From a virus, in the IMG/VR virus record IMGVR_UViG_3300043139_000001, positions 1-42,185 of that record: 42,185 bases of DNA. One strand, 5' to 3'. The notes beneath the pieces are model-generated. The model had not been told where the DNA came from. It searched no databases and worked only from the letters and a program-made list of their open reading frames with translations. This document shows positions 2,963 through 40,017 of the stretch, one piece after another; the first letter of the stretch is position 1, and every line of letters begins with the position of its first letter. The translations under genes were made by a program, and so were the position numbers.

Positions 2963-4311
2963 GCTACCTCTCCGAACTCCTGGCGGTCAAAGGGATCGTC
3001 AGCGTGTGGGAGCTGGGCGAGGCGGCGGGCAACGCGATCGACCTGGCCGACTCCAACGACGGCAGCTACCACCTGACGCCTCGAGCAGGGCTCTACGAAG
3101 AAACGTCCCGCGGCGAACCCTCGTTGCTCCCCAACGGGGAGGGGAAGTCGGCCAAGTTCTCGGGCGCCTCTACGAGCGTGATCGGGTCGTTCAGTTGCCC
3201 GCCGGTCAACGACGTCTTCACCTTCGAGGCGTGGATCAAGCTCTCCAAACTGGGCTCCGGTCACAACGGGATCATCAGCCGGGGGACCAAAGGCGGCTAT
3301 CTCCGCGTCGCAGAAGACGGCAAGCTCGAACTCCTAAAGGGCCAGATCGCCGGCATCCTCGCTTCTGCCGTCAAACTCTCCGTGGGGACGATCTACCACG
3401 TCGCGGCGACGAAGAACGGCAGCCAGGTCAGGCTCTTCCTCAACGGCGAAGTGATCGCCGAAGCCTCCACCGAAGTTGTCTGTGAAGCCGGTAACGAGGG
3501 TGCCCTCGGCCTCGCTCGAGATGTCTGGGCCTTCGGCGTCTCCGAGCCCTTCCACGGCACCTTGCAGTTCTGCTCCCAGCACCACGCCGCATTGACGCCC
3601 GCCGAGATCAAAGAAAACTACGAAGCGGCATCGGCGTCGGGGTATGTGGACGCGATCCTCAGTCGCCTCTCGCTGCTCACCTTGCACGAACTCGGGGAGA
3701 CGGAAGGCACCAAAGCCAACGATTCGATGGGCCGCCACCACCCGAGCCTGCTCTCGAGCGGAGAGGGGCGCTCTGTCGCTCTCGCCGAAGACGACTACAT
3801 AGAAGTCCCCGACGCGGCCAATCTCGACGTCGCCGACAACTTCTCGTTGCAAGCGGTAGTGGTGCGCTCCTACCCAGGGAAAACCGGGGGCATCATCAGC
3901 CGGGGGAAAAACGGCGCCTACCTGCGGCTGAGCGAAGGCGGCAAACTCGAACTGCTCAAGTCGAACGTCGCGGTGATCCTCACTTCGGCCACCGCTCTCG
4001 AATTCAACCGCGTCTACAAGGTGACGGCGACGAAGAACGGGAAAGTGGCGAAGATCTACATCGACGGGGTCTTGGATGCCGTCACCGAAGTCTCCGGCGT
4101 CACTTGCGAAGCCAACGCCGAGCTCTTGACGATTGGCGCGGACAACTCCGGCGGCGTGAAAGCCGAGCAGGCGAACGCGATCATCCAGTACGCGGCGATC
4201 TACAACTTGGCGATCGTCCCCGGCCTTATAACTGTGAAAATCATGCTTGGCGGCAAAGTGCAAGACAAGCCGCGCTACGTCTTAGTCAACGGTGAACTAC
4301 TCAACAGGTAG
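2959..4311 (+). CDS. Protein with two tandem LamG-like domains, probable tail fibre or receptor-binding protein
   Basis: GTGA overlap with the upstream stop. Two modules: ..FEAWIKLS..YHVAATKNG..RLFLNGEV.. and ..LQAVVVRS..YKVTATKNG..KIYIDGVL..IQYAAIYNLAI. The N-terminus YLSELLAVKGIVSVWELGEAAGNAID parallels the N-terminus of the 1689 gene. Confidence 0.7.
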   Translation: MSYLSELLAVKGIVSVWELGEAAGNAIDLADSNDGSYHLTPRAGLYEETSRGEPSLLPNGEGKSAKFSGASTSVIGSFSCPPVNDVFTFEAWIKLSKLGSGHNGIISRGTKGGYLRVAEDGKLELLKGQIAGILASAVKLSVGTIYHVAATKNGSQVRLFLNGEVIAEASTEVVCEAGNEGALGLARDVWAFGVSEPFHGTLQFCSQHHAALTPAEIKENYEAASASGYVDAILSRLSLLTLHELGETEGTKANDSMGRHHPSLLSSGEGRSVALAEDDYIEVPDAANLDVADNFSLQAVVVRSYPGKTGGIISRGKNGAYLRLSEGGKLELLKSNVAVILTSATALEFNRVYKVTATKNGKVAKIYIDGVLDAVTEVSGVTCEANAELLTIGADNSGGVKAEQANAIIQYAAIYNLAIVPGLITVKIMLGGKVQDKPRYVLVNGELLNR

Positions 4312-15702: not shown

Positions 15703-15953
15703 TAGCCCCGGTGCCGGTAGCGCTCGGGCTGCTTCGCGGGCGGCCAGTCGGGCGGGTAGACGTCTTCCTTGAAGCCTTCGTCGCTGGCGCTCCATTCGTC
15801 CTCGCCGGCCCAGCCGTTGTCGACCTGTAGCTGCTTGCGGTGGCCGCGGCCGTGCTCTTCGGCGAAGACGGCGATCCCGGCCGACTCGTAGCCGCGCAGC
15901 ATCCCCATCTGCACTTTGCAGTTGAGGCAGCGGGCGGCGAGGTTGAGGCCCAT
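15699..15953 (-). CDS. Hypothetical 84-aa protein with an N-terminal CxxC
   Basis: ATG directly follows the upstream stop. Third codon positions are almost all G/C when read by hand. Confidence 0.65.
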   Translation of the reverse strand: MGLNLAARCLNCKVQMGMLRGYESAGIAVFAEEHGRGHRKQLQVDNGWAGEDEWSASDEGFKEDVYPPDWPPAKQPERYRHRGY

Positions 15954-16307
15954 CTACGACACCAGCCTCCGGCCGGTGCCGCCACACTTTTCACAGCCGG
16001 CGCCGTCGCAGTCGAGGCAGTCGGCGACGCGCCGCGGCTCCTCGTCGAACTTCACACAGGCGAAGCGGGCGCCGTTGCGACGGGGCGGCTCGACGCGCTT
16101 GCCCTCGTCGGAGAGGAGCGCAATGCCGTGGGTGCGGAGATCCTCGAGCGCGAGCTTGGCCTCCTCCTCGTTCGCCGCGGTGGCGATGATGAACATTTCG
16201 GTCGCGTAGCGCCGGCCACTGGAGCGGCCGCCCATCACCCGAGGACCGCCCTCGTAGAAGCGCCGTTGCTCCGGCGTCATTCGGAAGCTGATCCCTGGGG
16301 CCTCCAC
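15954..16307 (-). CDS. Small protein with a DnaJ-type zinc-finger C-terminus
   Basis: GTG 16307 lies 7 nt downstream of the -10-like TAGGGT (possible leaderless start); ATG 16280 is an alternative. The C-terminus CLDCDGAGCEKCGGTG contains two CxxCxGxG repeats. Confidence 0.65.
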   Translation of the reverse strand: MEAPGISFRMTPEQRRFYEGGPRVMGGRSSGRRYATEMFIIATAANEEEAKLALEDLRTHGIALLSDEGKRVEPPRRNGARFACVKFDEEPRRVADCLDCDGAGCEKCGGTGRRLVS

Positions 16308-16314
16308 AGCGAGG

Positions 16315-16346
16315 ACCCTAGCAAATACGTGTACACATGGTAGGCT
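16315..16346. promoter_or_regulatory. Divergent control region: leftward -10-like TAGGGT (16315-16320, minus strand), palindrome ACGTGTACACAT (16327-16338), rightward -10-like TAGGCT (16341-16346)
   Basis: An 85-nt spacer separates the leftward cluster from the recombinase operon. The palindrome sits between two back-to-back TANNNT boxes. Confidence 0.45.
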
Positions 16347-16354
16347 GCGCCGAT

Positions 16355-16373
16355 CCCGGCGTCAGGAACCGGG
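16355..16373. repeat. Right copy of the 19-bp imperfect inverted repeat (partner at 15107-15125)
   Basis: cccggcgtcaggaaccggg. Lies between the rightward -10-like box and the SD of the 16393 ORF. Confidence 0.5.
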
Positions 16374-16392
16374 GCAAACCGAAGGAGATCCG

Positions 16393-16557
16393 ATGCAAGG
16401 CATGGTTACGATCGTCCTCACCCAAGAGGAGGAGGGCGGCGACGTCGACGTCAAGAGCTTCTTCGCCCCCCGCCTCAACTTGGAGGGCGAGAACCCCGAC
16501 ACCCACGGCTTCGCGGTCAAGATGCTCGAGGCCGTCGCCCAGGAGGCGGGAGCATGA
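16393..16557 (+). CDS. Possible 54-aa acidic protein translationally coupled to the recombinase
   Basis: ATG preceded by AACCGAAGGAG. Its stop overlaps the recombinase ATG (ATGA). Below the ORF-track size cutoff. Confidence 0.45.
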   Translation: MQGMVTIVLTQEEEGGDVDVKSFFAPRLNLEGENPDTHGFAVKMLEAVAQEAGA

Positions 16558-17156
16558 GCAGCCGACCCGACCTAACGACCCCCTGGGCCGATCGAGAGGA
16601 ACTGCGCAAGCTGCTCCTCGCCGCCCGCGACACCCACCCACGCGACTTCTTGCTCGTCTCCCTACTCGGGCTCAACGGCCTGCGTGTCTCGGAGGCGGTG
16701 AAAGCCGCTGTCGAGGATCTCGGCAGCTCCGGCGGGCACCGCACCCTCCACGTCGTGCGCAAGGGCCGCAAGCGCGGTGTCGTGCCACTCGCGCCGATCG
16801 TTTGCACGTCGATCGACGAGTTCCTCGCAGGACGCACGGAGGGGCCGCTCCTGCCGCGCCTACACGCCTCCGGGGCGGTGCTCGAGCCCTTGGTCGGGAT
16901 CTCCCGGCAGACGGCCTGGGATCGCGTCAAGGCCCTGGCCGACTGGATCGGCGTCAACCCCGACCTCTCGCCCCACTCCCTGCGGCGCAGCTTCGTCACC
17001 CTCGCCTTGCAGGACGGGGCGCCGCTGCATCAGGTGCAGCTCGCGGTCGGCCACGCCTCGCCGACGACGACGATGATCTACATGAAGGACGCGGGTGGCC
17101 TCGAGCACAACCCGACCTTCGACCTGGCTGACTCTCTACTTCGAGTGGAGGGTTAG
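16554..17156 (+). CDS. Tyrosine recombinase, catalytic domain only (200 aa)
   Basis: GLRVSE (Arg I at residue 44), VVRKGRK (Lys), HSLRRSF (His-x-x-Arg), VGHAS (His) and TMIYMK (Tyr) together make the full catalytic set. There is no room for an N-terminal core-binding domain. Confidence 0.85.
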   Translation: MSSRPDLTTPWADREELRKLLLAARDTHPRDFLLVSLLGLNGLRVSEAVKAAVEDLGSSGGHRTLHVVRKGRKRGVVPLAPIVCTSIDEFLAGRTEGPLLPRLHASGAVLEPLVGISRQTAWDRVKALADWIGVNPDLSPHSLRRSFVTLALQDGAPLHQVQLAVGHASPTTTMIYMKDAGGLEHNPTFDLADSLLRVEG

Positions 17157-17160
17157 GGAT

Positions 17161-17361
17161 ATGTCGATTCACCGCGTCCAGCTTGACCTCAACATCGACG
17201 ACGAGGCCCTCGCCGACCACCTGGCCGAGGCTGACGGCGAGCGGCCGCCCTACTCGGCCGACCTCAACGATTGGAACGCAGACGACGTCGCCAGAGCGGC
17301 CGAGCTCGACATCATCGACCTGGGCGACTGCGCCTTCACCTACATCGGGAAGGTGGGCTAG
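17161..17361 (+). CDS. Hypothetical acidic 66-aa protein
   Basis: ATG preceded by GGAGGGTTAGGG. I shortened the ORF on the track. Confidence 0.6.
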   Translation: MSIHRVQLDLNIDDEALADHLAEADGERPPYSADLNDWNADDVARAAELDIIDLGDCAFTYIGKVG

Positions 17362-17493
17362 ATGCACCCCTCTCGCTTCCATGACGGCGGCCCGATCCTC
17401 GACGTCGGCAAGCCGCTCTGGCCGCTCTGGGTGATCCCACTCGCGATCCTCGGCGGCGGCTGGCTGATCGAAGTGGTGGGAGGGTGGCTATGA
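17362..17493 (+). CDS. Possible 43-aa membrane peptide
   Basis: ATG directly follows the upstream TAG. TM segment LWPLWVIPLAILGGGWLIEVVGG. Its stop overlaps the next ATG (ATGA). Confidence 0.4.
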   Translation: MHPSRFHDGGPILDVGKPLWPLWVIPLAILGGGWLIEVVGGWL

Positions 17494-17834
17494 CGATCCG
17501 CTTCCCCGGCATCCAGATCTACGTTGGCCGCAAGCGAGGGCAACCAATCACCTATGACCATCTCGTGGACGCAGAGACGCGGGCGTTCGCAGCCGAAGAG
17601 CGTCTAGTCGAAGAGCGCGAGCAGTGGTGGGGGCTACGTCGGGTTGTGGAGCTGGCGATCGAGAAGATGCGAGGGGATCTACGCAATCAAGAGCCGCGAG
17701 CGGTTGCCGACGTGCTCGAGCGGGCGTTGCCCAAGTGGGGTTGTGCCCGCGATTCCGATTGGTGCGACGGCCATGTTTGCCGCGAGCAGGGCGTGGAGTG
17801 CCCCAACCAAATCGAGGAGGGAGGAAATGCCTGA
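17490..17834 (+). CDS. Hypothetical 114-aa protein with a Cys-rich C-terminus
   Basis: ATGA overlap with the upstream stop. GTG 17484 is an alternative start. Confidence 0.6.
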   Translation: MTIRFPGIQIYVGRKRGQPITYDHLVDAETRAFAAEERLVEEREQWWGLRRVVELAIEKMRGDLRNQEPRAVADVLERALPKWGCARDSDWCDGHVCREQGVECPNQIEEGGNA

Positions 17835-18000
17835 GTCGATGCGGCCCTTCGACTGGAAACGCGACTGTCCCAGGGACGTCGAGCGCTTCCGCCCGATCGC
17901 CGGCAGAGGGCGCGGTAGGGAGCTCAGCCCCGAGGCGGTTCAAACTGCGACCCGCAAATTGCAGGGTCGGGAGTTGACGCGACGGGAGCGGCCAGCGTAG
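17827..18000 (+). CDS. Possible 57-aa basic protein
   Basis: ATG preceded by GGAGGGAGGAA. Overlaps the upstream gene by 8 nt and ends just before a terminator. Confidence 0.35.
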   Translation: MPESMRPFDWKRDCPRDVERFRPIAGRGRGRELSPEAVQTATRKLQGRELTRRERPA

Positions 18001-18035
18001 GGTCGCCCTCGCCAGTCTCACTCCCTGCCAGTCGC

Positions 18036-18066
18036 AAAGGGCCGTCCTTCGGGGCGGCCCTTTGTC
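18036..18066 (+). terminator. Intrinsic terminator of the recombinase operon
   Basis: aaagggccg-tccttcgggg-cggcccttt (9-bp stem that can be extended into the loop), followed by gtcgtt. Confidence 0.6.
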
Positions 18067-18131
18067 GTTCCGTCCGCTGGGGGACCTAGCTTCCTCGCCG
18101 TGATTCAGGGTCACAGGATGCGAGGAGATCG

Positions 18132-18947
18132 GTGAGCGACCAGGCCGCCCGCAAGGCCGTTCGATTCGCCGACGACGTCACTCAACAGGGCTTCACGCAG
18201 ATCCCCAACGCGATCCTCCGTGACTCGACCCTCTCGGCCGGCGCCCGCCTCACCTACGGCCTCCTCAGTTCCTTCGCCTGGCAGAGCGACGAGTGCTTCG
18301 TCGGGCAGAAGAAGCTCGGCGAGCTGGCCGGCGTCGGCGATCGCCAGATCCGCAAGTACCTCACCGAACTCGAGGACGCGGGCCTGCTCGAGATCACACA
18401 GCAGGGCCTCCACAAGCCGAATCTCTACACCCTCTTTGGTGCCGGTCCTGACCGGGCCTGTAGTTCCGGTCAGGACCGGACCTCTAGTTCCGACGAAGAA
18501 GACACAAAGGAAGAAGACCCAGAAAACCCCCAACCCCCTACCCAGCAGACCGTCAAATCGGAGACGACCCAGAAGATCGAGAGCGCTTGGGACAAGTACG
18601 TAGTTGAGATGAATCCCCGCGGGCGCGGGCGCGAGCTGCAACCCGACGACCGGAAGATCCTTCGCGCTGTGCTCAAGGTCGCCGACCTTGAGGAGGTCGA
18701 AAAGGCGATCGCCGAGTGCCAGGCCAGCGACTTCCACATGAAGCGGGGCAAACACAAGAACCGGCCGGGCGGCAAGTACAACTCGCTCGGCAAGATCTTC
18801 AAGCCGCGGCCGACCAAAGGGGAGACGTGGCGATCGCGGATCGAATGGTGGCTCGATCGCGCCGAGGAACGCTCGAGCAATTCGACCCCCGCCTTCGACG
18901 TCAACGCCGAGGCGAAACGAATCCGCGAAGAGCAGGAGGCCGACTAG
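18132..18947 (+). CDS. Replication initiator / replisome-organiser-like winged-helix protein
   Basis: GTG start preceded by GAGGAG. N-terminus GFTQIPNAILRDSTLSAGARLTYGLLSSFAW...KKLGELAGVGDRQIRKYLTELEDAGLL is a typical wHTH. Lies directly upstream of dnaB. Confidence 0.7.
   Translation: MSDQAARKAVRFADDVTQQGFTQIPNAILRDSTLSAGARLTYGLLSSFAWQSDECFVGQKKLGELAGVGDRQIRKYLTELEDAGLLEITQQGLHKPNLYTLFGAGPDRACSSGQDRTSSSDEEDTKEEDPENPQPPTQQTVKSETTQKIESAWDKYVVEMNPRGRGRELQPDDRKILRAVLKVADLEEVEKAIAECQASDFHMKRGKHKNRPGGKYNSLGKIFKPRPTKGETWRSRIEWWLDRAEERSSNSTPAFDVNAEAKRIREEQEAD
18442..18493. repeat. Inverted plus direct repeats inside the initiator gene linker (origin candidate)
   Basis: ccggtcctgaccgg (18442-18455) and its exact reverse complement ccggtcaggaccgg (18466-18479). 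Direct repeats cctgtagttccg and cctctagttccg follow each arm. Confidence 0.4.
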
Positions 18948-20320
18948 TGGCCGGCAGTGTCGTCCTCGACCAGCACCCCGGCGACGTCCCGCCGCAGAAC
19001 ATCGAAGCCGAGGAGTCGGTGCTCGGGGCGATGCTCGTCGCCGAGCCGGCGCTCAAGAGGGTGCGGGTCGAATCGGGCCTCGTCCCCCAGCACTTCTACC
19101 TCGACAAGCACGGCGAGATCTTCGCCGCGATCGGGAAGGTCGCCGAACGCAACGGCACCGCTGACCAGCTCACCGTCGCCGACGCCCTGCCCGAGCACAG
19201 GAACCTGATCTTCGAGCTCGCGGCCAAGGTGCCGGCGGCAGGGAACGCGATGCACTACGCCCGGATCGTGCTGCTCAACGCCCAGCTTCGGGCGAAGCTC
19301 GAAGGCGCGCAGCTAATCCAAGAGGGGGTGCGCGAGCGCTTCGACGAAGAGAAGTCGGCCTCGCTGATCCGCGAGGGGATCGCCAGGGCGACGTCGGACT
19401 TCACGATCGACGCCGAGCGGACCTCCGGCGCCGACATCCTCGAGGATCTCTTCGACACCTTCGACCGCGACACCGAGGGCGAGGTCATGGAGCTGCCGTG
19501 GTCGGAGCTCAACGAGTGCGTCCTCGGCGGCTACCGGCGCAAGCAGATGTCGGTGTTGGCCGGCTGGGAAAACATGGGGAAGAGCTGCGCGCTCGACGAG
19601 ATCCTCGACAGCTTCGACCAGCAGGGTTTCAAATGCGCGATCTTCGCCACGGAGATGTCCAAGGAGGAGCGGGCGGCCCGGTGGCTGACGTCGCAGACGG
19701 CGGTGCCGCTCGAACGCATCCTCCGCAACCAGCTCGAGCCGAAGCACATGAGCCGCTTGCTCGAGGCGGCCAACAAGCACAACCGCCTCCCCTTCGACTA
19801 CTTCGAGTGTGACGATTGGAGCGCCGACCGGATCTGCGAGCGGATCGTCTTCGGCGATTACGACGTCGTCGCCGTCGACCCCGTCACCGAAATCCCCGGC
19901 TTCGAGAAAGCCGAGGTCGCCGCCGCGATCACTCGCCGCTTCAAGCAGGTTGCCACCCAGGCCAACTGCCACGTGATCCTCGTCGCCCACTTGAACCGGC
20001 AGCGGTTGAAGGACCCGAAGGGGGTGAAGCCGCGGCCGCTCTGCGTCGATCTCAAGGGCTCGGGGACGCTCGCCCAGGCGGCCAACGCCGTGCTCTTCCT
20101 GCACCGCGACCAGGACGAGGAGGCCAACGTCAAGCCGGAGGGCGAGATCTACTTCGACAAGGTCCGCAACGGCTTCAAGAAGTCGATCCGGGTCGCCCAG
20201 AGCAGCCGCACCCACCGCTTCATGTGGCTCAAGCCCGAGCCGGTCCACGAGCAGGAGGAGCTCGAAGTCGGCAACACCCACCTACCGCCACCCGGCCACG
20301 ACCAACGAAGGGACGACTGA
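18947..20320 (+). CDS. dnaB: DnaB-family replicative helicase
   Basis: GTG overlaps the initiator stop (TAGTG). N-terminal signature PPQNIEAEESVLGAML. Walker A GWENMGKS. RecA-like C-terminal domain. Confidence 0.9.
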   Translation: MAGSVVLDQHPGDVPPQNIEAEESVLGAMLVAEPALKRVRVESGLVPQHFYLDKHGEIFAAIGKVAERNGTADQLTVADALPEHRNLIFELAAKVPAAGNAMHYARIVLLNAQLRAKLEGAQLIQEGVRERFDEEKSASLIREGIARATSDFTIDAERTSGADILEDLFDTFDRDTEGEVMELPWSELNECVLGGYRRKQMSVLAGWENMGKSCALDEILDSFDQQGFKCAIFATEMSKEERAARWLTSQTAVPLERILRNQLEPKHMSRLLEAANKHNRLPFDYFECDDWSADRICERIVFGDYDVVAVDPVTEIPGFEKAEVAAAITRRFKQVATQANCHVILVAHLNRQRLKDPKGVKPRPLCVDLKGSGTLAQAANAVLFLHRDQDEEANVKPEGEIYFDKVRNGFKKSIRVAQSSRTHRFMWLKPEPVHEQEELEVGNTHLPPPGHDQRRDD

Positions 20321-20787
20321 TGGGAACCAAGCGCCGAGTGCGGATCGAAGACGAGGTCGGAGGCGGCCTCGTCGAGAACCCCCGCGATCCGACCGAGCCG
20401 GCGCGCTTGCTCCGGCAGAACCCCCACAGCACCGACTACGACGGCATCCGTCGCAGCTTCGACGAGGAAGGGGTGCCGAGGGACGTCACCAACCCCGCGG
20501 CGATCGCGGAGGCCGGCGAGGAATCGGCCTACACCGATCGGCCGGGGCAGGCCGTCCCCGGCGAGCCCGAGGCGATCAGCCGGGAGGCCCAGGAAGAGAT
20601 CTGCCGTCGAGCCCGCGAGAAGAAGGAGCGGGTGGTGATGTCGCCCCTCTACGCGATCGACAAGGAGCTCGAGAAGCTCGAAGGCGCCGGCCACTACAAG
20701 CCCGGCAAGGTCCGCTTCATCCGCAAGCTCGTCAACCAGCTCGGCGAGGACGCGATGCGGGGCGCGGTGGAGGTCGAGGACGAGTGA
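20320..20787 (+). CDS. Hypothetical acidic 155-aa protein
   Basis: ATG overlaps the dnaB stop (TGATG). This internal start was chosen within a longer ORF on the track. Confidence 0.6.
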   Translation: MGTKRRVRIEDEVGGGLVENPRDPTEPARLLRQNPHSTDYDGIRRSFDEEGVPRDVTNPAAIAEAGEESAYTDRPGQAVPGEPEAISREAQEEICRRAREKKERVVMSPLYAIDKELEKLEGAGHYKPGKVRFIRKLVNQLGEDAMRGAVEVEDE

Positions 20788-25128: not shown

Positions 25129-25153
25129 GCCGGTTCGACTCCGGCGGCCGCCA
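25129..25153 (+). other. tRNA T-arm-like hairpin (GCCGG-TTCGACT-CCGGC) followed by GGCCGCCA
   Basis: The 17-nt arm is identical to the arm at 26572-26588 on the opposite strand. No complete cloverleaf could be drawn. Confidence 0.35.
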
Positions 25154-25224: not shown

Positions 25225-25255
25225 AACGCCGCGCCAAAAATCAGGGCGCGGCGTT
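25225..25255 (-). terminator. Terminator of the leftward operon (hairpin usable on both strands)
   Basis: aacgccgcgcc / ggcgcggcgtt form an 11-bp perfect stem with a 9-nt loop. On the minus strand the stem runs into TTTTGG. It overlaps the last codons of the 25241 gene. Confidence 0.55.
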
Positions 25256-25666: not shown

Positions 25667-25748
25667 GGGAGCGCCGGGGAATCGAACCCCGGCAGGCTCC
25701 AAGCGCCCCTTGGCCGCGAGCCGCGCGGTGAGTCCCGCGCGGCCCTCC
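25667..25748 (-). ncRNA. tRNA-like cloverleaf element E2 (not a canonical tRNA)
   Basis: The minus strand reads ggagggc-c-GCGCGG-gactca-CCGCGC-GGCTC-(18 nt)-GAGCC-tg-CGGGG-TTCGATT-CCCCG-gcgctcc-c. It has the T-loop consensus and acceptor-like ends pairing at 6/7 positions. There is no 7-nt anticodon loop. Confidence 0.4.
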
Positions 25749-26087: not shown

Positions 26088-26525
26088 TCAGACCTCCTCC
26101 ACGGCGACGGACACTTTCCAGTGTGCGCCCTTGCCGCTCTCAAGGTCAACGATCCAGTTGAGCGCCCAGCCTTCGTTGAAGCTGCCCGCCGCCCACACCC
26201 CGACCTCCTCGGCCGTTCCGGCGAAGAAGTCCGGGTTATCGCGGTAGCTCGATTCGCCCGATCCCTCCGACGTGCAAGCGAGGAACTGCGGGCACTCGGG
26301 CAGCTCGCCCAACGGGCACCCAGCGGCATGGCCCGGCGTGTCCTGTTCGGCGCAGATGCACTCCTCCCCGGCGGCGTCGAACAGCTCCGCTACCTCGGGA
26401 TTGTGGATGCCGTCAGACGGGCTCTCGTCGTCGATCAGTTCGCGCAACCTGCGCAGCCGCTCGGCGTAGTTGGGTGGCGCTGCGCCGAGCCCGTCAGCGC
26501 CGGCCATCTCGGTTTCTGCGTTCAT
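26088..26525 (-). CDS. Hypothetical acidic 145-aa protein with a Cys cluster
   Basis: ATG 26525 preceded by AACCGAAGGGAGCAGCACCC. I rejected the upstream extension to 26600 because it runs through the tRNA-like element. Confidence 0.65.
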   Translation of the reverse strand: MNAETEMAGADGLGAAPPNYAERLRRLRELIDDESPSDGIHNPEVAELFDAAGEECICAEQDTPGHAAGCPLGELPECPQFLACTSEGSGESSYRDNPDFFAGTAEEVGVWAAGSFNEGWALNWIVDLESGKGAHWKVSVAVEEV

Positions 26526-26562
26526 GGGTGCTGCTCCCTTCGGTTGTACTGCGTTCGGTACA

Positions 26563-26608
26563 TGGCCGCGCGCCGGAGTCGAACCGGCGCGATGCTCCAA
26601 AGCGCGGC
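26563..26608 (-). ncRNA. tRNA-like acceptor/T-arm minihelix element E3
   Basis: The minus strand reads GCCGCGC-tttggagcatcgc-GCCGG-TTCGACT-CCGGC-GCGCGGC-CA. The 7-bp outer helix and 5-bp T stem are both perfect. It starts at the last base of the upstream stop codon. Confidence 0.4.
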
Positions 26609-26976
26609 TAGGCGTTGAGCTTGGCTGCCAGGTCGACGGCCTGACGCTCGCTCAGCTTCGGGAGATCCTGTAGGCCGTGACCACGGCGGCAGATGCCCCA
26701 GCCGAACGTACCGGCGGGCTGGCGATTGTTCGCGTCGAGGTCGATAGCGACGTACTCCCACTGAGGCGTAGCGACCACGATCTCGTCTTCCCGTTCGCTG
26801 ACGAGCTGCTCGCCGTCGAGCAGCCGCTCTGCGGCCGTGCTGACCGATCCGGGCTCACCGGACCAGTCGAGCCACAGAGAGGCGGCCTCTACGGCGGTCG
26901 GCTTCACGTCGCTCCGATAGCCCCGGTGGCTGCCGTTGACGTGGCGGCGGACGTGGAAGCTCGGCGCGGCGCTCAT
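26608..26976 (-). CDS. Hypothetical 122-aa protein
   Basis: ATGA overlap with the upstream gene. No family recognised. Confidence 0.6.
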   Translation of the reverse strand: MSAAPSFHVRRHVNGSHRGYRSDVKPTAVEAASLWLDWSGEPGSVSTAAERLLDGEQLVSEREDEIVVATPQWEYVAIDLDANNRQPAGTFGWGICRRGHGLQDLPKLSERQAVDLAAKLNA

Positions 26977-27650
26977 TCGATCAGCTCCGGCACCACACGG
27001 CGGGCGAACTCTTCGGCGGCTTCCTTCGCCTCGCCGGTCAGCTCGACCTCAGCCGAGCTGCTCCATGAGTAGCGGAAGAGCACCCGGCGGATTTCCAGCG
27101 AGGCGGCGGTGTCCTCGCTCCCCAGCTCGACGCCGCCCCCGCTGCACTCGATCAGCAAGCGGCGATCAGGGCCGCCAGTCCCGAGCACGATTTCAAACGT
27201 GGTCGAGGCTTCGACGCAGAGAGGAAGCGCGTTGAGGCGGTCCTCTGCTTCCTCGCGGACCTGCGCGGCGCTGAGTGGCCCAGCGACGCCGTAGCCGATA
27301 TCCAAGCCGAGCAGCTCGTCATTGCTCCATTCGTCGAGCTCGGCCTCCTCTACGTTCGCCAGCTTGAGCAGATCGGCTAGTTCCGTGGTCAGGCTCTCGG
27401 CCGACTCGCCGACGTAGAGAGCCGGGACAGTCTCGCTGTGCTCGGCCTCATAGTCGCTGATCGTGCCGAGCATCGACTGAGGGCAGAGGAACGCAGTCTC
27501 CGGCGTCCACTCCTCCCCGTCCGGCTTGACGCTGTAGAGCGGCTCCCCATAGGGGCCGAACTTGCCGAGCTGCTCGACCACGCGGCCGCTCCTCGCCCCG
27601 TAGCCAGCGCGGACCAGGACACGATCTCCGCTGTTGTGCTGGTAGTGCAT
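26973..27650 (-). CDS. Hypothetical 225-aa acidic protein with an SH3/Tudor-like N-terminus
   Basis: ATG 27650 preceded by AACCGAAGGAGTGACG. N-terminus GDRVLVRAGYGARSGRVVEQL..YSVKPDGEEW. First gene of the leftward operon. Confidence 0.65.
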   Translation of the reverse strand: MHYQHNSGDRVLVRAGYGARSGRVVEQLGKFGPYGEPLYSVKPDGEEWTPETAFLCPQSMLGTISDYEAEHSETVPALYVGESAESLTTELADLLKLANVEEAELDEWSNDELLGLDIGYGVAGPLSAAQVREEAEDRLNALPLCVEASTTFEIVLGTGGPDRRLLIECSGGGVELGSEDTAASLEIRRVLFRYSWSSSAEVELTGEAKEAAEEFARRVVPELIE

Positions 27651-27703
27651 CGTCACTCCTTCGGTTGCGCTGCGTTCATGTAACGCCCACGGTACAGCAT
27701 CGC

Positions 27704-27713: not shown

Positions 27714-28066
27714 AGCAGAGGATCGGCGGGACGTGGACACATGTTCGGTTCCGCTCTGCTCTCGGCGTTGACGTGCAGCGGATGGCGCGTTGGCTCTACG
27801 CGCGCTGCACCAAATGCGCGCGCGAGCTGCGCTGCTCAGCTCGGCACGTGGTCGGACATATCCGCCGGACTGTCAACCCTTGCTTGGCTCTGCGAGTGGG
27901 CGCGTTCGATCAAGCGAATGCAGAACCCTCGAAACCCTCCCGATCATGTACCGCAGGCGGCACAATCAGGGGGGCGGGGGAGTGGGCGAATCCCGGCGCT
28001 GGCGCATCTATATATCTCCACCCTCCTCTACAAGAATTGGCCGAAAGAGCGGCCTTGTGTACACGT

Positions 28067-28215: not shown

Positions 28216-29730
28216 ATGAGCGAGGAGACGAGAGTGGAGATCGCAGGACCGCACTTCGAGATCAACGAGACGGTCGAGCCGACCCCGGACGCGGCGATCA
28301 AGCCCGCGGGTCGAGTCGGCCGAGTCGAGTCTCGGGCATGGACCGAGTTCCGCGGCCAGCCCGGCTACTGGCGCTACACGATCCGCTGGCCCGGCGGGGG
28401 CACGTCGAACGAGTCGGCGAAACACCTACAGGTGGCCGACCGGATCGCCTGCGACTTGAAGGTGGTCGTCAGCGGCGCCCCGTTCAAGATCGAGACGTAC
28501 ACGACGCAGACCGTCGAGGAAGTCGTCGAGGTCGCGCTCGCGAAGGCGGGCATCCCGCACCCGGATACGCCGCCGAATCCGACCTGGCAACTCCGCACCG
28601 AGGACGGGCGCGAGCTGCGCCACTTGGTCGGCGATGCCGAGCTCGTCGACGGCGAGACGGTGCTCTACCTCGATCCCGAGGTCGGCGGTGGAGGCGACCA
28701 GGGGGGCGAGGTCGTCGAGAGCGGCTACATCTACCCCGGCTGGCAGGGGACGCCGCCCGCGGAGGGCACCCGGCGCGCGCTGATCCGCGACACGATCGGC
28801 GAGACGCTCGAGGGCGCCGAGATCGTCGTCAAGCCGGACGACCGGCCCTTCGAGGGCGACCTGCCGCTGGCGCTGGCCGATCGAGTCGAGGAGGCCCTGC
28901 TCCGCGTCGTCGACCAGGGCGCCACCCCGGAGTCGGGATCGCCCGCCTCGGTGGCTATGGACTTGCTCGACCAGTTCGAGATCCCGCGGACCCGCGAGGG
29001 CGCGATCCTGACGATCGCCCAGCGGGTGACGGCGCTGGCCGACGAGCTCGTGGAGACGCGCCGCCAGGCCGACATCCGCCGCGCCTCGGCAGACGGACTC
29101 GCCGCCACCGTCGACGCGCAGCAGCGGGCAATGGACAAGATCCGCGCCGAGGGCAAGGTCCCCGCCGGCACCAAGGAGCTCGTGATCGTGCTCGAGGACG
29201 TCTCCGACCCGGACGGGCCGCCGGAGTACCGCTTCATCGAGCTCGAGGATCAGGACGGGCGCAGCGTCGGCTCGTTCCCGATGCGCGCGAGCTCGACGCC
29301 GCCGCTCAGAGAGATCGCGATCCCCTACGGCCGCGACGACGCTTGGGTGAGCGAGGTCGCCTACCAGGCCGCCGGGGCCGGCACCCGGCCGCTCATGGAA
29401 GACCACCCCGACTACGTCTTCCCGTCAGAGCGCGTGGCGGACGCCGTCGCGGAGTTGCTCTCCGACTTCGGCATCCCGCGGGCCTGCCGCGACTGCGCCG
29501 AGGAGGAGCTCGGCCACGGCGCCAAGGAGGTCGACGGCCGCCGCGACGACACGATCAAGGCCCTCACCGCGCGCTGCGACTCCCTGCTCGCCCAGCGCGA
29601 AGCCTCGCGGGCGAGCGAGGACACCTACAAGGCCCAGCGCGACTCGGCGCTGCACCTTCTGCGCTGGCTGATCGGCGACCTGATCCCGGCCGACCTGATC
29701 CGGTTCCAAGCCGAGCAGGAAAACTCGTGA
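28216..29730 (+). CDS. Hypothetical 504-aa protein, first gene of the rightward operon
   Basis: ATG with a weak SD. Ordinary amino-acid composition, unlike the overlapping Arg-rich 27741 frame. Residues 81-160 look beta-grasp-like and end in VGGGG. Confidence 0.7.
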   Translation: MSEETRVEIAGPHFEINETVEPTPDAAIKPAGRVGRVESRAWTEFRGQPGYWRYTIRWPGGGTSNESAKHLQVADRIACDLKVVVSGAPFKIETYTTQTVEEVVEVALAKAGIPHPDTPPNPTWQLRTEDGRELRHLVGDAELVDGETVLYLDPEVGGGGDQGGEVVESGYIYPGWQGTPPAEGTRRALIRDTIGETLEGAEIVVKPDDRPFEGDLPLALADRVEEALLRVVDQGATPESGSPASVAMDLLDQFEIPRTREGAILTIAQRVTALADELVETRRQADIRRASADGLAATVDAQQRAMDKIRAEGKVPAGTKELVIVLEDVSDPDGPPEYRFIELEDQDGRSVGSFPMRASSTPPLREIAIPYGRDDAWVSEVAYQAAGAGTRPLMEDHPDYVFPSERVADAVAELLSDFGIPRACRDCAEEELGHGAKEVDGRRDDTIKALTARCDSLLAQREASRASEDTYKAQRDSALHLLRWLIGDLIPADLIRFQAEQENS

Positions 29731-39670: not shown

Positions 39671-39997
39671 TCACGCCGGGTTGTCGCGTCGCAGCATCTT
39701 GAGCGCGCGGGCCTTCGCGTCCTTGCGTTTGCGGTGCCGGCGCATCGTCTTCATATCGGGCTTCCACGCCTTCGGCTTGCCGCTCCTCGAGCCCTTGCCG
39801 TAGCCGCGGTAGATGAAGCTCGCGAAGTAGCCCTTCGGGTCGTCGTCGGTCTGATCGGCCCGCTCCGTCGTCCAGCAGTACATGTTGCCGTTGGCTCCCT
39901 GGAAGTAACGGTAAGAGGGGGCGGCGGAAACCGCTCCCATTTCCCGCATGAACTGGTTGAGCCGCTCGACGATTGCCGGGTTCACTTCCTCGCTCAT
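39671..39997 (-). CDS. Hypothetical 108-aa protein with a basic C-terminus, encoded antisense within the structural region
   Basis: ATG 39997 preceded by CAACCGAAGGGAGCACAC, the same leader as the leftward-operon genes. I shortened the 302-aa ORF on the track. Confidence 0.65.
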   Translation of the reverse strand: MSEEVNPAIVERLNQFMREMGAVSAAPSYRYFQGANGNMYCWTTERADQTDDDPKGYFASFIYRGYGKGSRSGKPKAWKPDMKTMRRHRKRKDAKARALKMLRRDNPA

Positions 39998-40017
39998 GTG
40001 TGCTCCCTTCGGTTGGG

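Follow-up and report, generated by a model that had tools for sequence, protein, structure and literature searches.

We analysed an RNA element, termed E3, within a leftward operon of the IMG/VR virus record IMGVR_UViG_3300043139_000001, whose 42,185 nt (hereafter the window, with positions counted from its first letter) are a high-GC (67.5%) tailed-phage genome. We find E3 to be a genuine and conserved RNA structure that imitates the tRNA acceptor and T arms. It lies on the coding strand of its operon, begins on the stop codon of the gene upstream, encodes no CCA terminus, and belongs to a family of minihelices whose stems covary. We favour, at about an even chance in our judgement, the reading that E3, as a tRNA mimic, lets RNase P and RNase Z punctuate the polycistronic mRNA of the phage.

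Read directly, the minus strand from 26608 to 26563 consists of G (the last base of a TAG) followed by CCGCGC, tttggagcatcgc, GCCGG, TTCGACT, CCGGC, GCGCGGC and CA. As the original prediction had proposed from the sequence, this is an acceptor/T-arm minihelix, with an outer helix of 7 bp and an inner stem of 5 bp, both perfect, the latter closing a 7-nt tRNA-type T loop, and its first base is also the last base of the stop codon of the open reading frame (ORF) upstream (TAG, 26610-26608). The 3′ flank is CAUGUACC. The prediction had further pointed to a CCA at the 3′ edge of the element, and this part failed: in tRNA numbering the three bases are C72-C73-A74 and not 74-76, and they are not conserved, since relatives read GGC-C-UUG there. 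No CCA at 74-76 is encoded in E3, E2 or any core member of the family. Separated from the discriminator by a single base (A 26563), a small leader hairpin, UGUAC-N8-GUACA, begins 2 nt past it and is kept in most E3-type relatives; contig L099 has a different 8-bp hairpin instead.

E3 had been predicted to be a paralogue of E2, a second minihelix in the same operon. The flanks claimed to be common to the two, GCGCTT(T)GGAGC, TGTACC(A/G)AAC and AACCGAAGGGAGCAGCA, are indeed present in both, and their stems differ in sequence with pairing intact. The T stem is CGGGG/CCCCG in E2 versus GCCGG/CCGGC in E3, and the outer helix is GGGGCGC/GCGCUCC, with a G3.U70 wobble, versus GCCGCGC/GCGCGGC. A covariance model, R1, built from 11 elements of other phages with E2 and E3 left out, nevertheless detects both in the window with filters off (E3, 55.9 bits, E 1e-10; E2, 49.6 bits, E 3e-9), which bears out the paralogy. 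The next matches are the T arm alone of a further element, E1 (19.7 bits), and then noise, with the next full-length match at 18.8 bits; because of this gap, E3 is far beyond chance. Nor is the similarity between E2 and E3 limited to the ribosome-site leader, the outcome that would have counted against the prediction, since leader and minihelix each occur independently. The minihelix is also found with quite different leaders, in Gordonia phage Cafasso, Halorubrum tailed virus BLv36 and low-GC phages, and the leader is also present without any hairpin at 27650 and 40003 in the window. ORFs formally read through both elements, and the GC fractions at the three codon positions there ([0.72, 0.64, 0.72] for E2 and [0.80, 0.64, 0.56] for E3) are unlike those of the real genes of the window (about [0.7, 0.45, 0.85]). 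We therefore take E2 and E3 to be non-coding, and rejected an extension of the downstream ORFs through them as coding sequence.

Relatives of E3 were found by several routes. Starting from the flanking protein, the same element was seen directly after the homologous upstream gene in IMG/VR contigs L001 and L002, and likewise in L217. Pattern scans gave E3-type copies in about 14 related high-GC contigs, and in related contigs a second element lies 550-900 nt downstream with wholly different stems (AGACGGC/GCCGUCU with GCGGG/CCCGC, GGGCGGC/GCCGCCC, GCGGCGC and others). A scan with the linker and T loop revealed the identical architecture in unrelated phage contigs of 53-68% GC, among them L034, L036, L063, L070, L092, L104, L120 and L126. 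Among cultured phages, a distant blastn search with the element identified the Gordonia phages Cafasso, Aleemily and ObLaDi. In Cafasso (L149, MZ322021), the TAG of gene 146 overlaps GCCCCGC-uuuggagcacgc-ACCGG-UUCGAUU-CCGGU-GCGGGGC, and R1 finds six copies in 15892-20396 (-), in the spacers of the leftward genes 154-143, none of them annotated in GenBank. Five of the six (not 15892-15935) are followed by a leader with a small C/G-rich hairpin, the motif GGCACCCAACA and a Shine-Dalgarno sequence; the hairpin is CCCGCGAGGG, with a GNRA loop, in one copy, and related sequences stand in the other four leaders.

The family also extends beyond cultured phages. A 41,349-bp contig of a Solirubrobacterales metagenome-assembled genome (MAG) carries a copy scoring 62.5 bits with the same T stem as E3, GCCGG/CCGGC, and the host of the window phage is likely a member of this order. 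The genome collection yielded further copies in a Solirubrobacterales chromosome, an Actinomycetota MAG, MAGs of Microcoleus, Planctomycetaceae and Spirochaetia, and three cultured haloarchaea (Haloarchaeobius, Halolamina and Halorubrum); the scan, with CTTGGAGC-N5-9-GGTTCGANTCC, was saturated by the variable arms of Acidobacteria tRNA-Tyr, so that only about 10 loci are informative. In BLv36 (L270, OQ850970), an unannotated element at 2499-2542 makes up the entire ORF24-ORF25 spacer, with a TAA overlapping its 5′ strand and the ATG of ORF25 directly after the discriminator. A metagenome scan with the 16-nt leader gave 102 matches, of which 4 were relevant and the rest mostly due to chance. 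The window genome has no close cultured relative: megablast and tblastn searches of cultured phages with the region, the flanking gene and the major capsid protein returned none, and blastn with a low-GC variant of the element had no match there either.

Covariation was evaluated on an alignment, A4, in which 40 R1 hits representing 30 distinct sequences were fitted to a structure-aware model. Among the distinct sequences, 95.2% of the pair cells are paired, compared to 62.9% after shuffling (0 of 500 shuffles as high) and 44-53% when the 3′ partners are slid, 100 cells show double changes against 30 in the control, and the covariation score is 0.749 against 0.165, although these numbers lean towards structure, because the sequences were partly retrieved by T-loop and linker patterns and the alignment was structure-aware. 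The second-position elements and the Cafasso copies were retrieved without a pairing requirement, yet they pair. Compensatory changes occur in 9 of the 12 pairs, with G52-C62 and G53-C61 invariant, as in tRNA. The original prediction had read the compensatory differences between E2 and E3 as a sign of selection on RNA structure, to be checked by an explicit covariation test with homologues; in that comparison the helices are kept through double substitutions, which together with the paired but different stems supports the claim. Helices broken without compensation, which would have counted against it, amount to isolated single mismatches, a G/G at the first pair of the T stem in L007 and an A/G at 7:66 in L015.

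The exact register of the helices is less rigid than their combined length. RNAalifold applied to a MAFFT alignment of 17 sequences, which was not structure-fitted, gives a 5-bp outer and a 7-bp inner helix, 12 pairs in all, of which 10 have compensatory changes. Pair 7:66, formed in 16 of the 30 sequences, is weak, and in 21 of 27 the final base of the linker pairs, with covariation, with the base that opens the 3′ strand. The robust description is therefore a 12-bp stack with a T loop, in which the 5′ strand is broken by an 11-14-nt bulge; registers of 7+5, 6+6 and 5+7 are compatible with it, the 7+5 register of tRNA being one of the three. An obligatory switch to an alternative 8-bp hairpin was considered and rejected, as the extra pairs are supported mainly in the GC-rich family and clash with perfectly conserved acceptor pairs.

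The unpaired parts of the element are conserved as well. The T loop of the family fits UUCRANY. The bulge opens with a conserved C-UUGGAGC, or more generally YGG, and the latter is found near the linker start in 25 of the 29 elements that were not retrieved by it, versus 14.3+/-2.5 in shuffled linkers. The C-UUGGAGC sequence resembles the 3′ half of the tRNA D loop (..UUGG(U)AGAGC..), and its GG could mimic the docking of G18-G19 on the T loop. On the sense strand G.U pairs outnumber A.C pairs by 7 to 2, which is weak evidence given that the model favours G.U. The fixed T loop, G52-C62, G53-C61 and GG, the constant 12 bp, the covarying stems and the strict sense orientation form the pattern of an RNA under selection to resemble the upper half of a tRNA.

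E3 corresponds to no established class of structured RNA among those compared. It satisfies the features of canonical tRNA only in its 7-nt UUCRANY T loop closed by G53-C61 and its 12-bp acceptor/T stack; there is no cloverleaf, and the 13-nt linker alone stands between the acceptor 5′ strand and the T stem. With default settings ARAGORN finds the window free of tRNAs, and no Rfam family reaches its gathering threshold there or in 8 related loci. In a permissive Rfam scan, E2 has its best match to mascRNA-menRNA (RF01684; 26.1 bits, E 0.027, gathering threshold 42.5), a family that does not match E3 in the same scan and of which E3 is not a member, and the tRNA clan gives for E3 only an 18-bit tRNA-Sec pseudo-alignment that runs into coding sequence. 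The ‘tRNA-Ile’ and ‘tRNA-Arg’ that ARAGORN places over the L217 and L191 elements are similarly spurious, their fits running into coding sequence. E3 does not resemble transfer-messenger RNA (tmRNA): G3.U70 occurs only in E2, there is no tag frame, and neither ARAGORN nor Rfam detects one. There is no terminator-like site at E3, and as an internal part of a DNA-phage operon without CCA it differs from viral 3′-terminal tRNA-like structures. A pyrrolysine or selenocysteine insertion sequence (PYLIS or SECIS), a stop-codon read-through signal or a frameshift signal was rejected on the grounds that linker lengths vary and that there is no conserved frame or slippery site. What E3 does have is one feature of a punctuation element, a tRNA-like fold that lies on the sense strand between cistrons. 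No account of such elements came up in literature searches, and the family, which has no equivalent in Rfam or ARAGORN, is apparently undescribed.

The position of the elements relative to genes is also constrained. All copies in the window (2/2) and in Cafasso (6/6) are on the sense strand. A scan from -4 to +2 of the first base of the 5′ strand placed the in-frame stop of an upstream ORF (40 codons or longer) at, or overlapping, the start of that strand in 23 of the 58 distinct non-tRNA minihelices. In the high-GC contigs and the window this overlap is present in 15 of 17 copies, all except E2 and that of L015; the stop codon begins 2 nt (1 nt in L018) before the helix, whose first base or bases it provides. 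The upstream genes are mutually unrelated. Often a small hairpin follows 1-5 nt past the discriminator, as in the window, Cafasso, Planctomycetaceae, Microcoleus and haloarchaeal copies, and then a ribosome-binding site; the hairpin is UGUAC..GUACA in the window, has a GNRA loop in Cafasso, and a UUCG or other loop elsewhere. Each module runs from a stop codon that overlaps the first base of the helix, through the minihelix itself, in many cases a small hairpin, and a ribosome-binding leader, to the next gene. Comparison of loci shows a conserved island in which the element is 82-95% identical to E3 and, in most loci, the leader 70-92%, and which in five loci includes the first 21 nt of the next ORF (90-100% identity). 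The flanking 150 nt are at background identity (57-67%) save in L001 and L002; upstream homology is confined to these two contigs and downstream homology to L001. The element therefore marks a mosaic boundary.

Table 1. Positions of the element, its parts and other features of the window.
Feature	Position	Strand	Basis or remarks
E3, whole tRNA-like minihelix	26565..26608	-	Direct reading, fold, covariance model (55.9 bits)
E3 5′ strand, GCCGCGC	26608-26602	-	
E3 linker, UUUGGAGCAUCGC	26601-26589	-	13 nt, D-loop-like YGG
E3 T stem, 5′ side, GCCGG	26588-26584	-	
E3 T loop, UUCGACU	26583-26577	-	
E3 T stem, 3′ side, CCGGC	26576-26572	-	
E3 3′ strand, GCGCGGC	26571-26565	-	
E3 discriminator-like C	26564	-	Followed by AUG... 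instead of CCA
Small leader hairpin, UGUAC-N8-GUACA	26545..26562	-	Centroid structure
Conserved leader, CAACCGAAGGGAG (Shine-Dalgarno), spacer and downstream ATG	26523..26546	-	ATG at 26525-26523
E2, paralogous minihelix, GGGGCGC-uuggagccugc-CGGGG-UUCGAUU-CCCCG-GCGCUCC	25668..25709	-	Upstream of ATG 25636
Gene upstream of E3, function unknown	26608..26976	-	122 aa; TAG stop 26610-26608
Gene downstream of E3	26088..26525	-	145 aa; first 21 nt (MNAETEM) inside conserved island
E1, full-size tRNA-like gene with insert in anticodon loop	25046..25154	+	Convergent; context, not part of E3
Tyrosine recombinase/integrase, short	16554..17156	+	200 aa; Pfam Phage_integrase, E 3.9e-20
Structural genes (P22-like portal, capsid protein, SU10-type adaptor)			
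Replication/recombination genes (DnaB, PD-(D/E)XK nuclease, Sak4-like protein); also amidase			

The leftward operon in which E3 and E2 lie (27650 to 25241) is made up of small genes whose functions are unknown, and converges on a 480-nt non-coding stretch containing E1. Where the convergent units meet, at about 25225-25255, there is a bidirectional terminator-like hairpin, AACGCCGCGCC..GGCGCGGCGTT, flanked by A/T runs. A very stable 11-bp hairpin (25720-25744) stands directly upstream of E2. The leader motif, GAACGCAG-NN-CAACCGAAGG(G)AG, occurs at 26541-26556, 27655-27672 (-) and 40003-40015 (-), the latter two without a minihelix, in one case ahead of the gene that opens the leftward operon and in the other ahead of a gene for a small basic protein (39671..39997) that sits between capsid genes. 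Its octamer GAACGCAG is repeated just past the ATG of the gene downstream of E3 (26516-26523); the first 21 nt of this gene are conserved as DNA in five contigs, and the encoded proteins diverge thereafter. A palindrome, TGTAC-N8-GTACA, sits in the E3 leader (26545-26562 (-)), and a similar one, CATGTACCGCAGGCGGCACAA, is found at 27945-27965 (+), in the divergent promoter region between the leftward operon and a rightward operon that starts at 28216. Palindromes of this type could be an operator for a regulator.

E1 resembles a complete tRNA more closely. It has homologues at L010:5186-5302(-), L005:8878-9002(+), L001:5563-5684(-) and L217:3995-4110(-), an acceptor stem of GGCGGUC/GGCCGCC-A, a T stem that covaries, and a D arm with a 3-bp stem and the loop GGUAGAG. 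The anticodon loop departs from the canonical form and in 4 of 5 genomes holds a conserved hairpin insert of about 33-40 nt (GCAGGAACGUCGUAGCUGUCGCGACCUGC); ARAGORN detects E1 in intron mode only, as ‘tRNA-Thr(CGU) + 33-nt intron’. E1 is not a tmRNA, and no Rfam family matches it. The T arms of E1 (25129-25146 (+)) and E3 (26571-26588 (-)) are identical at 18/18 positions and form an inverted repeat 1.4 kb apart. As E1-type T stems in relatives are CCAGG/CCUGG or UCCGG/CCGGA, and the E3-type stem of L217 is already GCCGG/CCGGC, the E1 of the window seems to have acquired its T arm from E3 by an event resembling gene conversion. We provisionally set aside the idea that E1 or E3 is the core of a phage attachment site (attP): the integrase is distant (9 kb from E3), no T-arm-like attP core adjoins the integrase (16554-17156), E1 is a conserved, complete tRNA-like gene, and E3 has a complementary 5′ strand, which an attachment core does not need. 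Concerning the origin of the family, a phage tRNA array in L014 (approximately 3965-4040 (-); IMG/VR 3300037408_000341) includes what reads by eye as a putative tRNA-Thr(UGU), whose acceptor stem, GCCGCGC/GCGCGGC, and T arm, CCCGG UUCGACU CCGGG, equal the E3-type consensus. This hints that the L014 sequence is a candidate for the tRNA from which the minihelices descended.

The top half of tRNA is the part recognised by RNase P, RNase Z and the CCA-adding enzyme, and CCA is an anti-determinant for RNase Z. If E3 is a punctuation mark, E3 and E2 would mimic this half within the leftward polycistronic mRNA, through their 12-bp coaxial acceptor/T stack and T loop, and the YGG (C-UUGGAGC) in the 11-14-nt bulge would dock on the loop like G18-G19. 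Host RNase P would then cut 5′ of the helix and/or RNase Z after the discriminator, separating the cistrons, giving the fragments structured, nuclease-resistant ends and releasing a tRNA-like RNA of about 45 nt. An RNase Z cut after the discriminator is suggested by the lack of an encoded CCA, which suits an RNase Z substrate better than it suits a ready-made CCA terminus. The downstream hairpin lies where cleavage would create a new 5′ end and could protect the 3′ product there, and in BLv36, where the ATG directly follows the discriminator, cleavage would yield a leaderless mRNA. The distribution of the family in both bacteria and archaea further suggests a universal partner such as RNase P or RNase Z. 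RNase P efficiently cleaves hairpins of an acceptor stem, T stem and T loop, and phage RNAs and some mRNAs are among its further substrates (PMC11143913). Polycistronic mitochondrial transcripts mature as RNase P and RNase Z excise the tRNAs in them (PMC4394434), and mascRNA, to whose family E2 has its sub-threshold match, shows the same processing principle in a nuclear long non-coding RNA (PMC11693755).

Several points weigh against this reading. Recognition of E3 by tRNA-processing enzymes, its cleavage and an effect on expression are things that we infer, cleavage wholly so. The main difficulty is that RNase P, in cutting 5′ of G+1, would take the final base off the stop codon and so turn the upstream message into a non-stop mRNA; slow cleavage, use of RNase Z only, protection by terminating ribosomes or repair by addition of A might ease this problem, which is speculative. 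The -1 base of the elements is A or G and not the U that bacterial RNase P favours, and the elements have no 3′ RCCA. E2 has no stop codon abutting it. Folding of E3 as a single sequence is not significant by itself (z -1.7): at minimum energy the T hairpin grows to 7-8 bp and the outer helix becomes shorter, and this alternative hairpin competes with the acceptor-like pairing. The element can also be lost. In L003 (4330-4420 (+)), the homologue of the upstream gene is followed by TAGCCGCG, 17 nt and GCGCGG, an outer-helix remnant without a T arm; the copy is degenerate or deleted, and the element is thus dispensable for this gene. To these points we add the lean of the covariation statistics noted above. 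A more far-reaching version, which we regard as distinctly unlikely, is that bacterial and archaeal tailed viruses use punctuation like that of mitochondria: RNase P would cut within the stop codon (leaving UA or UG), with subsequent 3′ addition of A to give UAA or UGA or else a programmed non-stop mRNA under the control of tmRNA, RNase Z would free a hairpin-capped or, in haloarchaea, leaderless mRNA, and CCA-added minihelices together with the E1 RNA would be decoys against defences that target the acceptor end.

The conserved features can be set against other explanations. Repetitive extragenic palindromic (REP) elements within about 15 nt of stop codons affect the stability and translation of the upstream mRNA, and E3 sits right behind a stop codon, where stable hairpins have such effects. 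It might therefore be a generic protective or attenuating hairpin of T-arm origin, either a REP-like stabiliser or an actinobacterial ‘I-shaped’ terminator without a U tract, that acts by helix stability without any tRNA enzyme. The GC-rich 7-8-bp hairpin that dominates the minimum-energy structure and the T-rich tracts after some low-GC copies (L070, L083) would agree with this, but a mere stabiliser leaves unexplained the UUCRANY loop with G53-C61 and G52-C62, the C-UUGGAGC/YGG bulge, and the constant 12 bp in unrelated phages and archaeal viruses. With no terminator-like site at E3, and with copies in series within one operon (two in the window, six in Cafasso), we consider this explanation unlikely. 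The mosaic boundary raises a different possibility, that the element acts as DNA, either as a homologous boundary for shuffling cassettes or as an attC-like or tRNA-like target of a phage tyrosine recombinase. Segments of tRNA T arm and acceptor are classic integrase targets, integron attC sites also overlap the stop codons of cassettes, the window encodes a tyrosine integrase (16554..17156), the 18/18 identity of the E3 and E1 T arms looks like a gene-conversion tract, and the element with its leader (and 21 nt of the next gene in five loci) is a conserved island between mostly unrelated flanks. Freely covarying stems around a fixed T loop and GG are, however, the pattern of an RNA fold and not of a recombination core, and it is not obvious what a tRNA-specific loop would do in DNA. 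The 27 kb of Cafasso that we examined has six copies and no annotated integrase, the 7-to-2 excess of G.U over A.C weakly favours RNA, and mosaicism may be a passive effect of any conserved intergenic sequence; such a DNA element seems very doubtful.

Other explanations accept an RNA but assign it another role. Minihelices are substrates for several synthetases and for the CCA-adding enzyme, and the mimicry of acceptor, T arm and elbow is complete, so a released mini-tRNA could itself be the product, which after processing and CCA addition would be a decoy or sponge for binders of the acceptor end or elbow (toxins, synthetases, the CCA-adding enzyme), perhaps in aminoacylated form. Several copies per operon of small, probably early genes, the alanine identity pair G3.U70 of E2 and the conserved full-size, non-decoding tRNA-like gene E1 nearby are in line with this idea, which we nonetheless regard as very improbable: acceptors and discriminators (C, A, G, U) vary so widely that no specificity for a single synthetase or toxin is conserved, G3.U70 is not conserved in the family, and the strict association with a stop codon and a downstream ribosome site points to a role in cis in the mRNA. 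A further candidate role is that of a signal at the level of translation, in which the mimic, melted by each ribosome that terminates on the overlapping stop, modulates termination, recycling, the hand-over to the next start, or rescue. The exact overlap is kept across unrelated upstream genes, the bulge contains a Shine-Dalgarno-like GGAG 9-12 nt past the stop, and a strong ribosome-binding site always follows in bacterial copies. Yet the next start lies 31-47 nt after the helix in the 16 copies of the high-GC contigs and the window for which a start was found (31-39 nt in all except L099), which is too long for classical coupling; E2 and the L126 and L022 copies abut no stop codon; slippery sites and conserved read-through frames are lacking, and linkers differ by 1-3 nt in length. 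We accordingly hold out little expectation for a translational signal. Finally, phages often carry tRNA genes, true tRNAs lie nearby in the relatives L003 and L018, and the E3-type arms are identical to those of the L014 sequence read by eye as a putative tRNA-Thr(UGU), all of which would be expected of a decaying, functionless tRNA pseudogene. Nevertheless, the identical, precise architecture recurs in many unrelated lineages, and neutral decay would not leave compensatory substitutions, a bulge motif that is conserved or a fixed position, so that the covariation evidence effectively refutes it; of a pseudogene there is scarcely any likelihood.

If the punctuation reading is true, E3 would be a portable RNA module that borrows the universal enzymes of tRNA maturation to cut and stabilise the transcripts of viral operons. 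To our knowledge, documented cases of this principle are so far confined to mitochondria, one herpesvirus and a few eukaryotic long non-coding RNAs. The module would also account for many of the spacers of about 80-100 nt that stand unannotated in actinobacteriophage genomes, and would offer annotators a new RNA family and synthetic biology a natural part with which to set the stoichiometry of cistrons in operons. The spread across domains, the overlap with stop codons and the role as a mosaic boundary connect the family to phage mRNA processing, cassette shuffling and tRNA decoys, all of which would be addressable in the cultured phage Cafasso.

Among known systems, integron attC sites are likewise conserved in structure and variable in sequence, begin at or in the stop codon of a cassette and form a mosaic boundary, but they are single-stranded DNA folds for the integron integrase with extrahelical bases and, unlike E3, have no T-loop or tRNA signature. 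The start-associated and extended start-associated sequences (SAS/ESAS) of Cluster K mycobacteriophages share with E3 the form of a repeated intergenic module before start codons, with a ribosome-site leader and an upstream inverted repeat, but they have other sequences, no tRNA-like T loop and no described overlap with stop codons. In the tRNA-microRNA-encoded RNA (TMER) units of murine gammaherpesvirus 68 (MHV68), a viral tRNA-like structure directly precedes hairpins and provides an RNase Z signal; these are RNA polymerase III transcripts of a eukaryotic herpesvirus, without the tie to protein-coding cistrons seen for E3. The ‘t-elements’ of plant mitochondria are tRNA-like folds between cistrons that are cleavage marks for RNase P and RNase Z. 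Minihelices of an acceptor stem and T stem-loop were reportedly introduced as model substrates of RNase P by McClain, Guerrier-Takada and Altman in 1987. Such substrates have, like E3, a 12-bp coaxial acceptor/T stack and a T loop without D and anticodon arms, and bacterial RNase P cleaves them at the canonical site, but they are synthetic and carry a 3′ CCA, whereas E3 is natural, lies within an mRNA and has an 11-14-nt YGG bulge and no CCA (PMC11143913). The punctuation of mitochondrial transcripts matches our reading of E3 in that tRNA folds between cistrons are the marks for RNase P and RNase Z, and stop codons can overlap the tRNA and end up incomplete, as they would at E3; it is organellar and usually involves full tRNAs, while the E3 family consists of non-decoding minihelices, with predicted cleavage, in operons of viruses of bacteria and archaea (PMC4394434). 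The mascRNA and menRNA (RF01684) are also tRNA mimics inside longer transcripts, excised by RNase P and RNase Z, but they are eukaryotic, nuclear and cloverleaf-shaped, with D- and anticodon-like arms that E3 does not have (PMC11693755). A tRNA mimic as a processing mark is thus known elsewhere, and what is new here is the setting in phages and archaeal viruses, the form of a minihelix with a GG bulge, the overlap with a stop codon and the modular leader.

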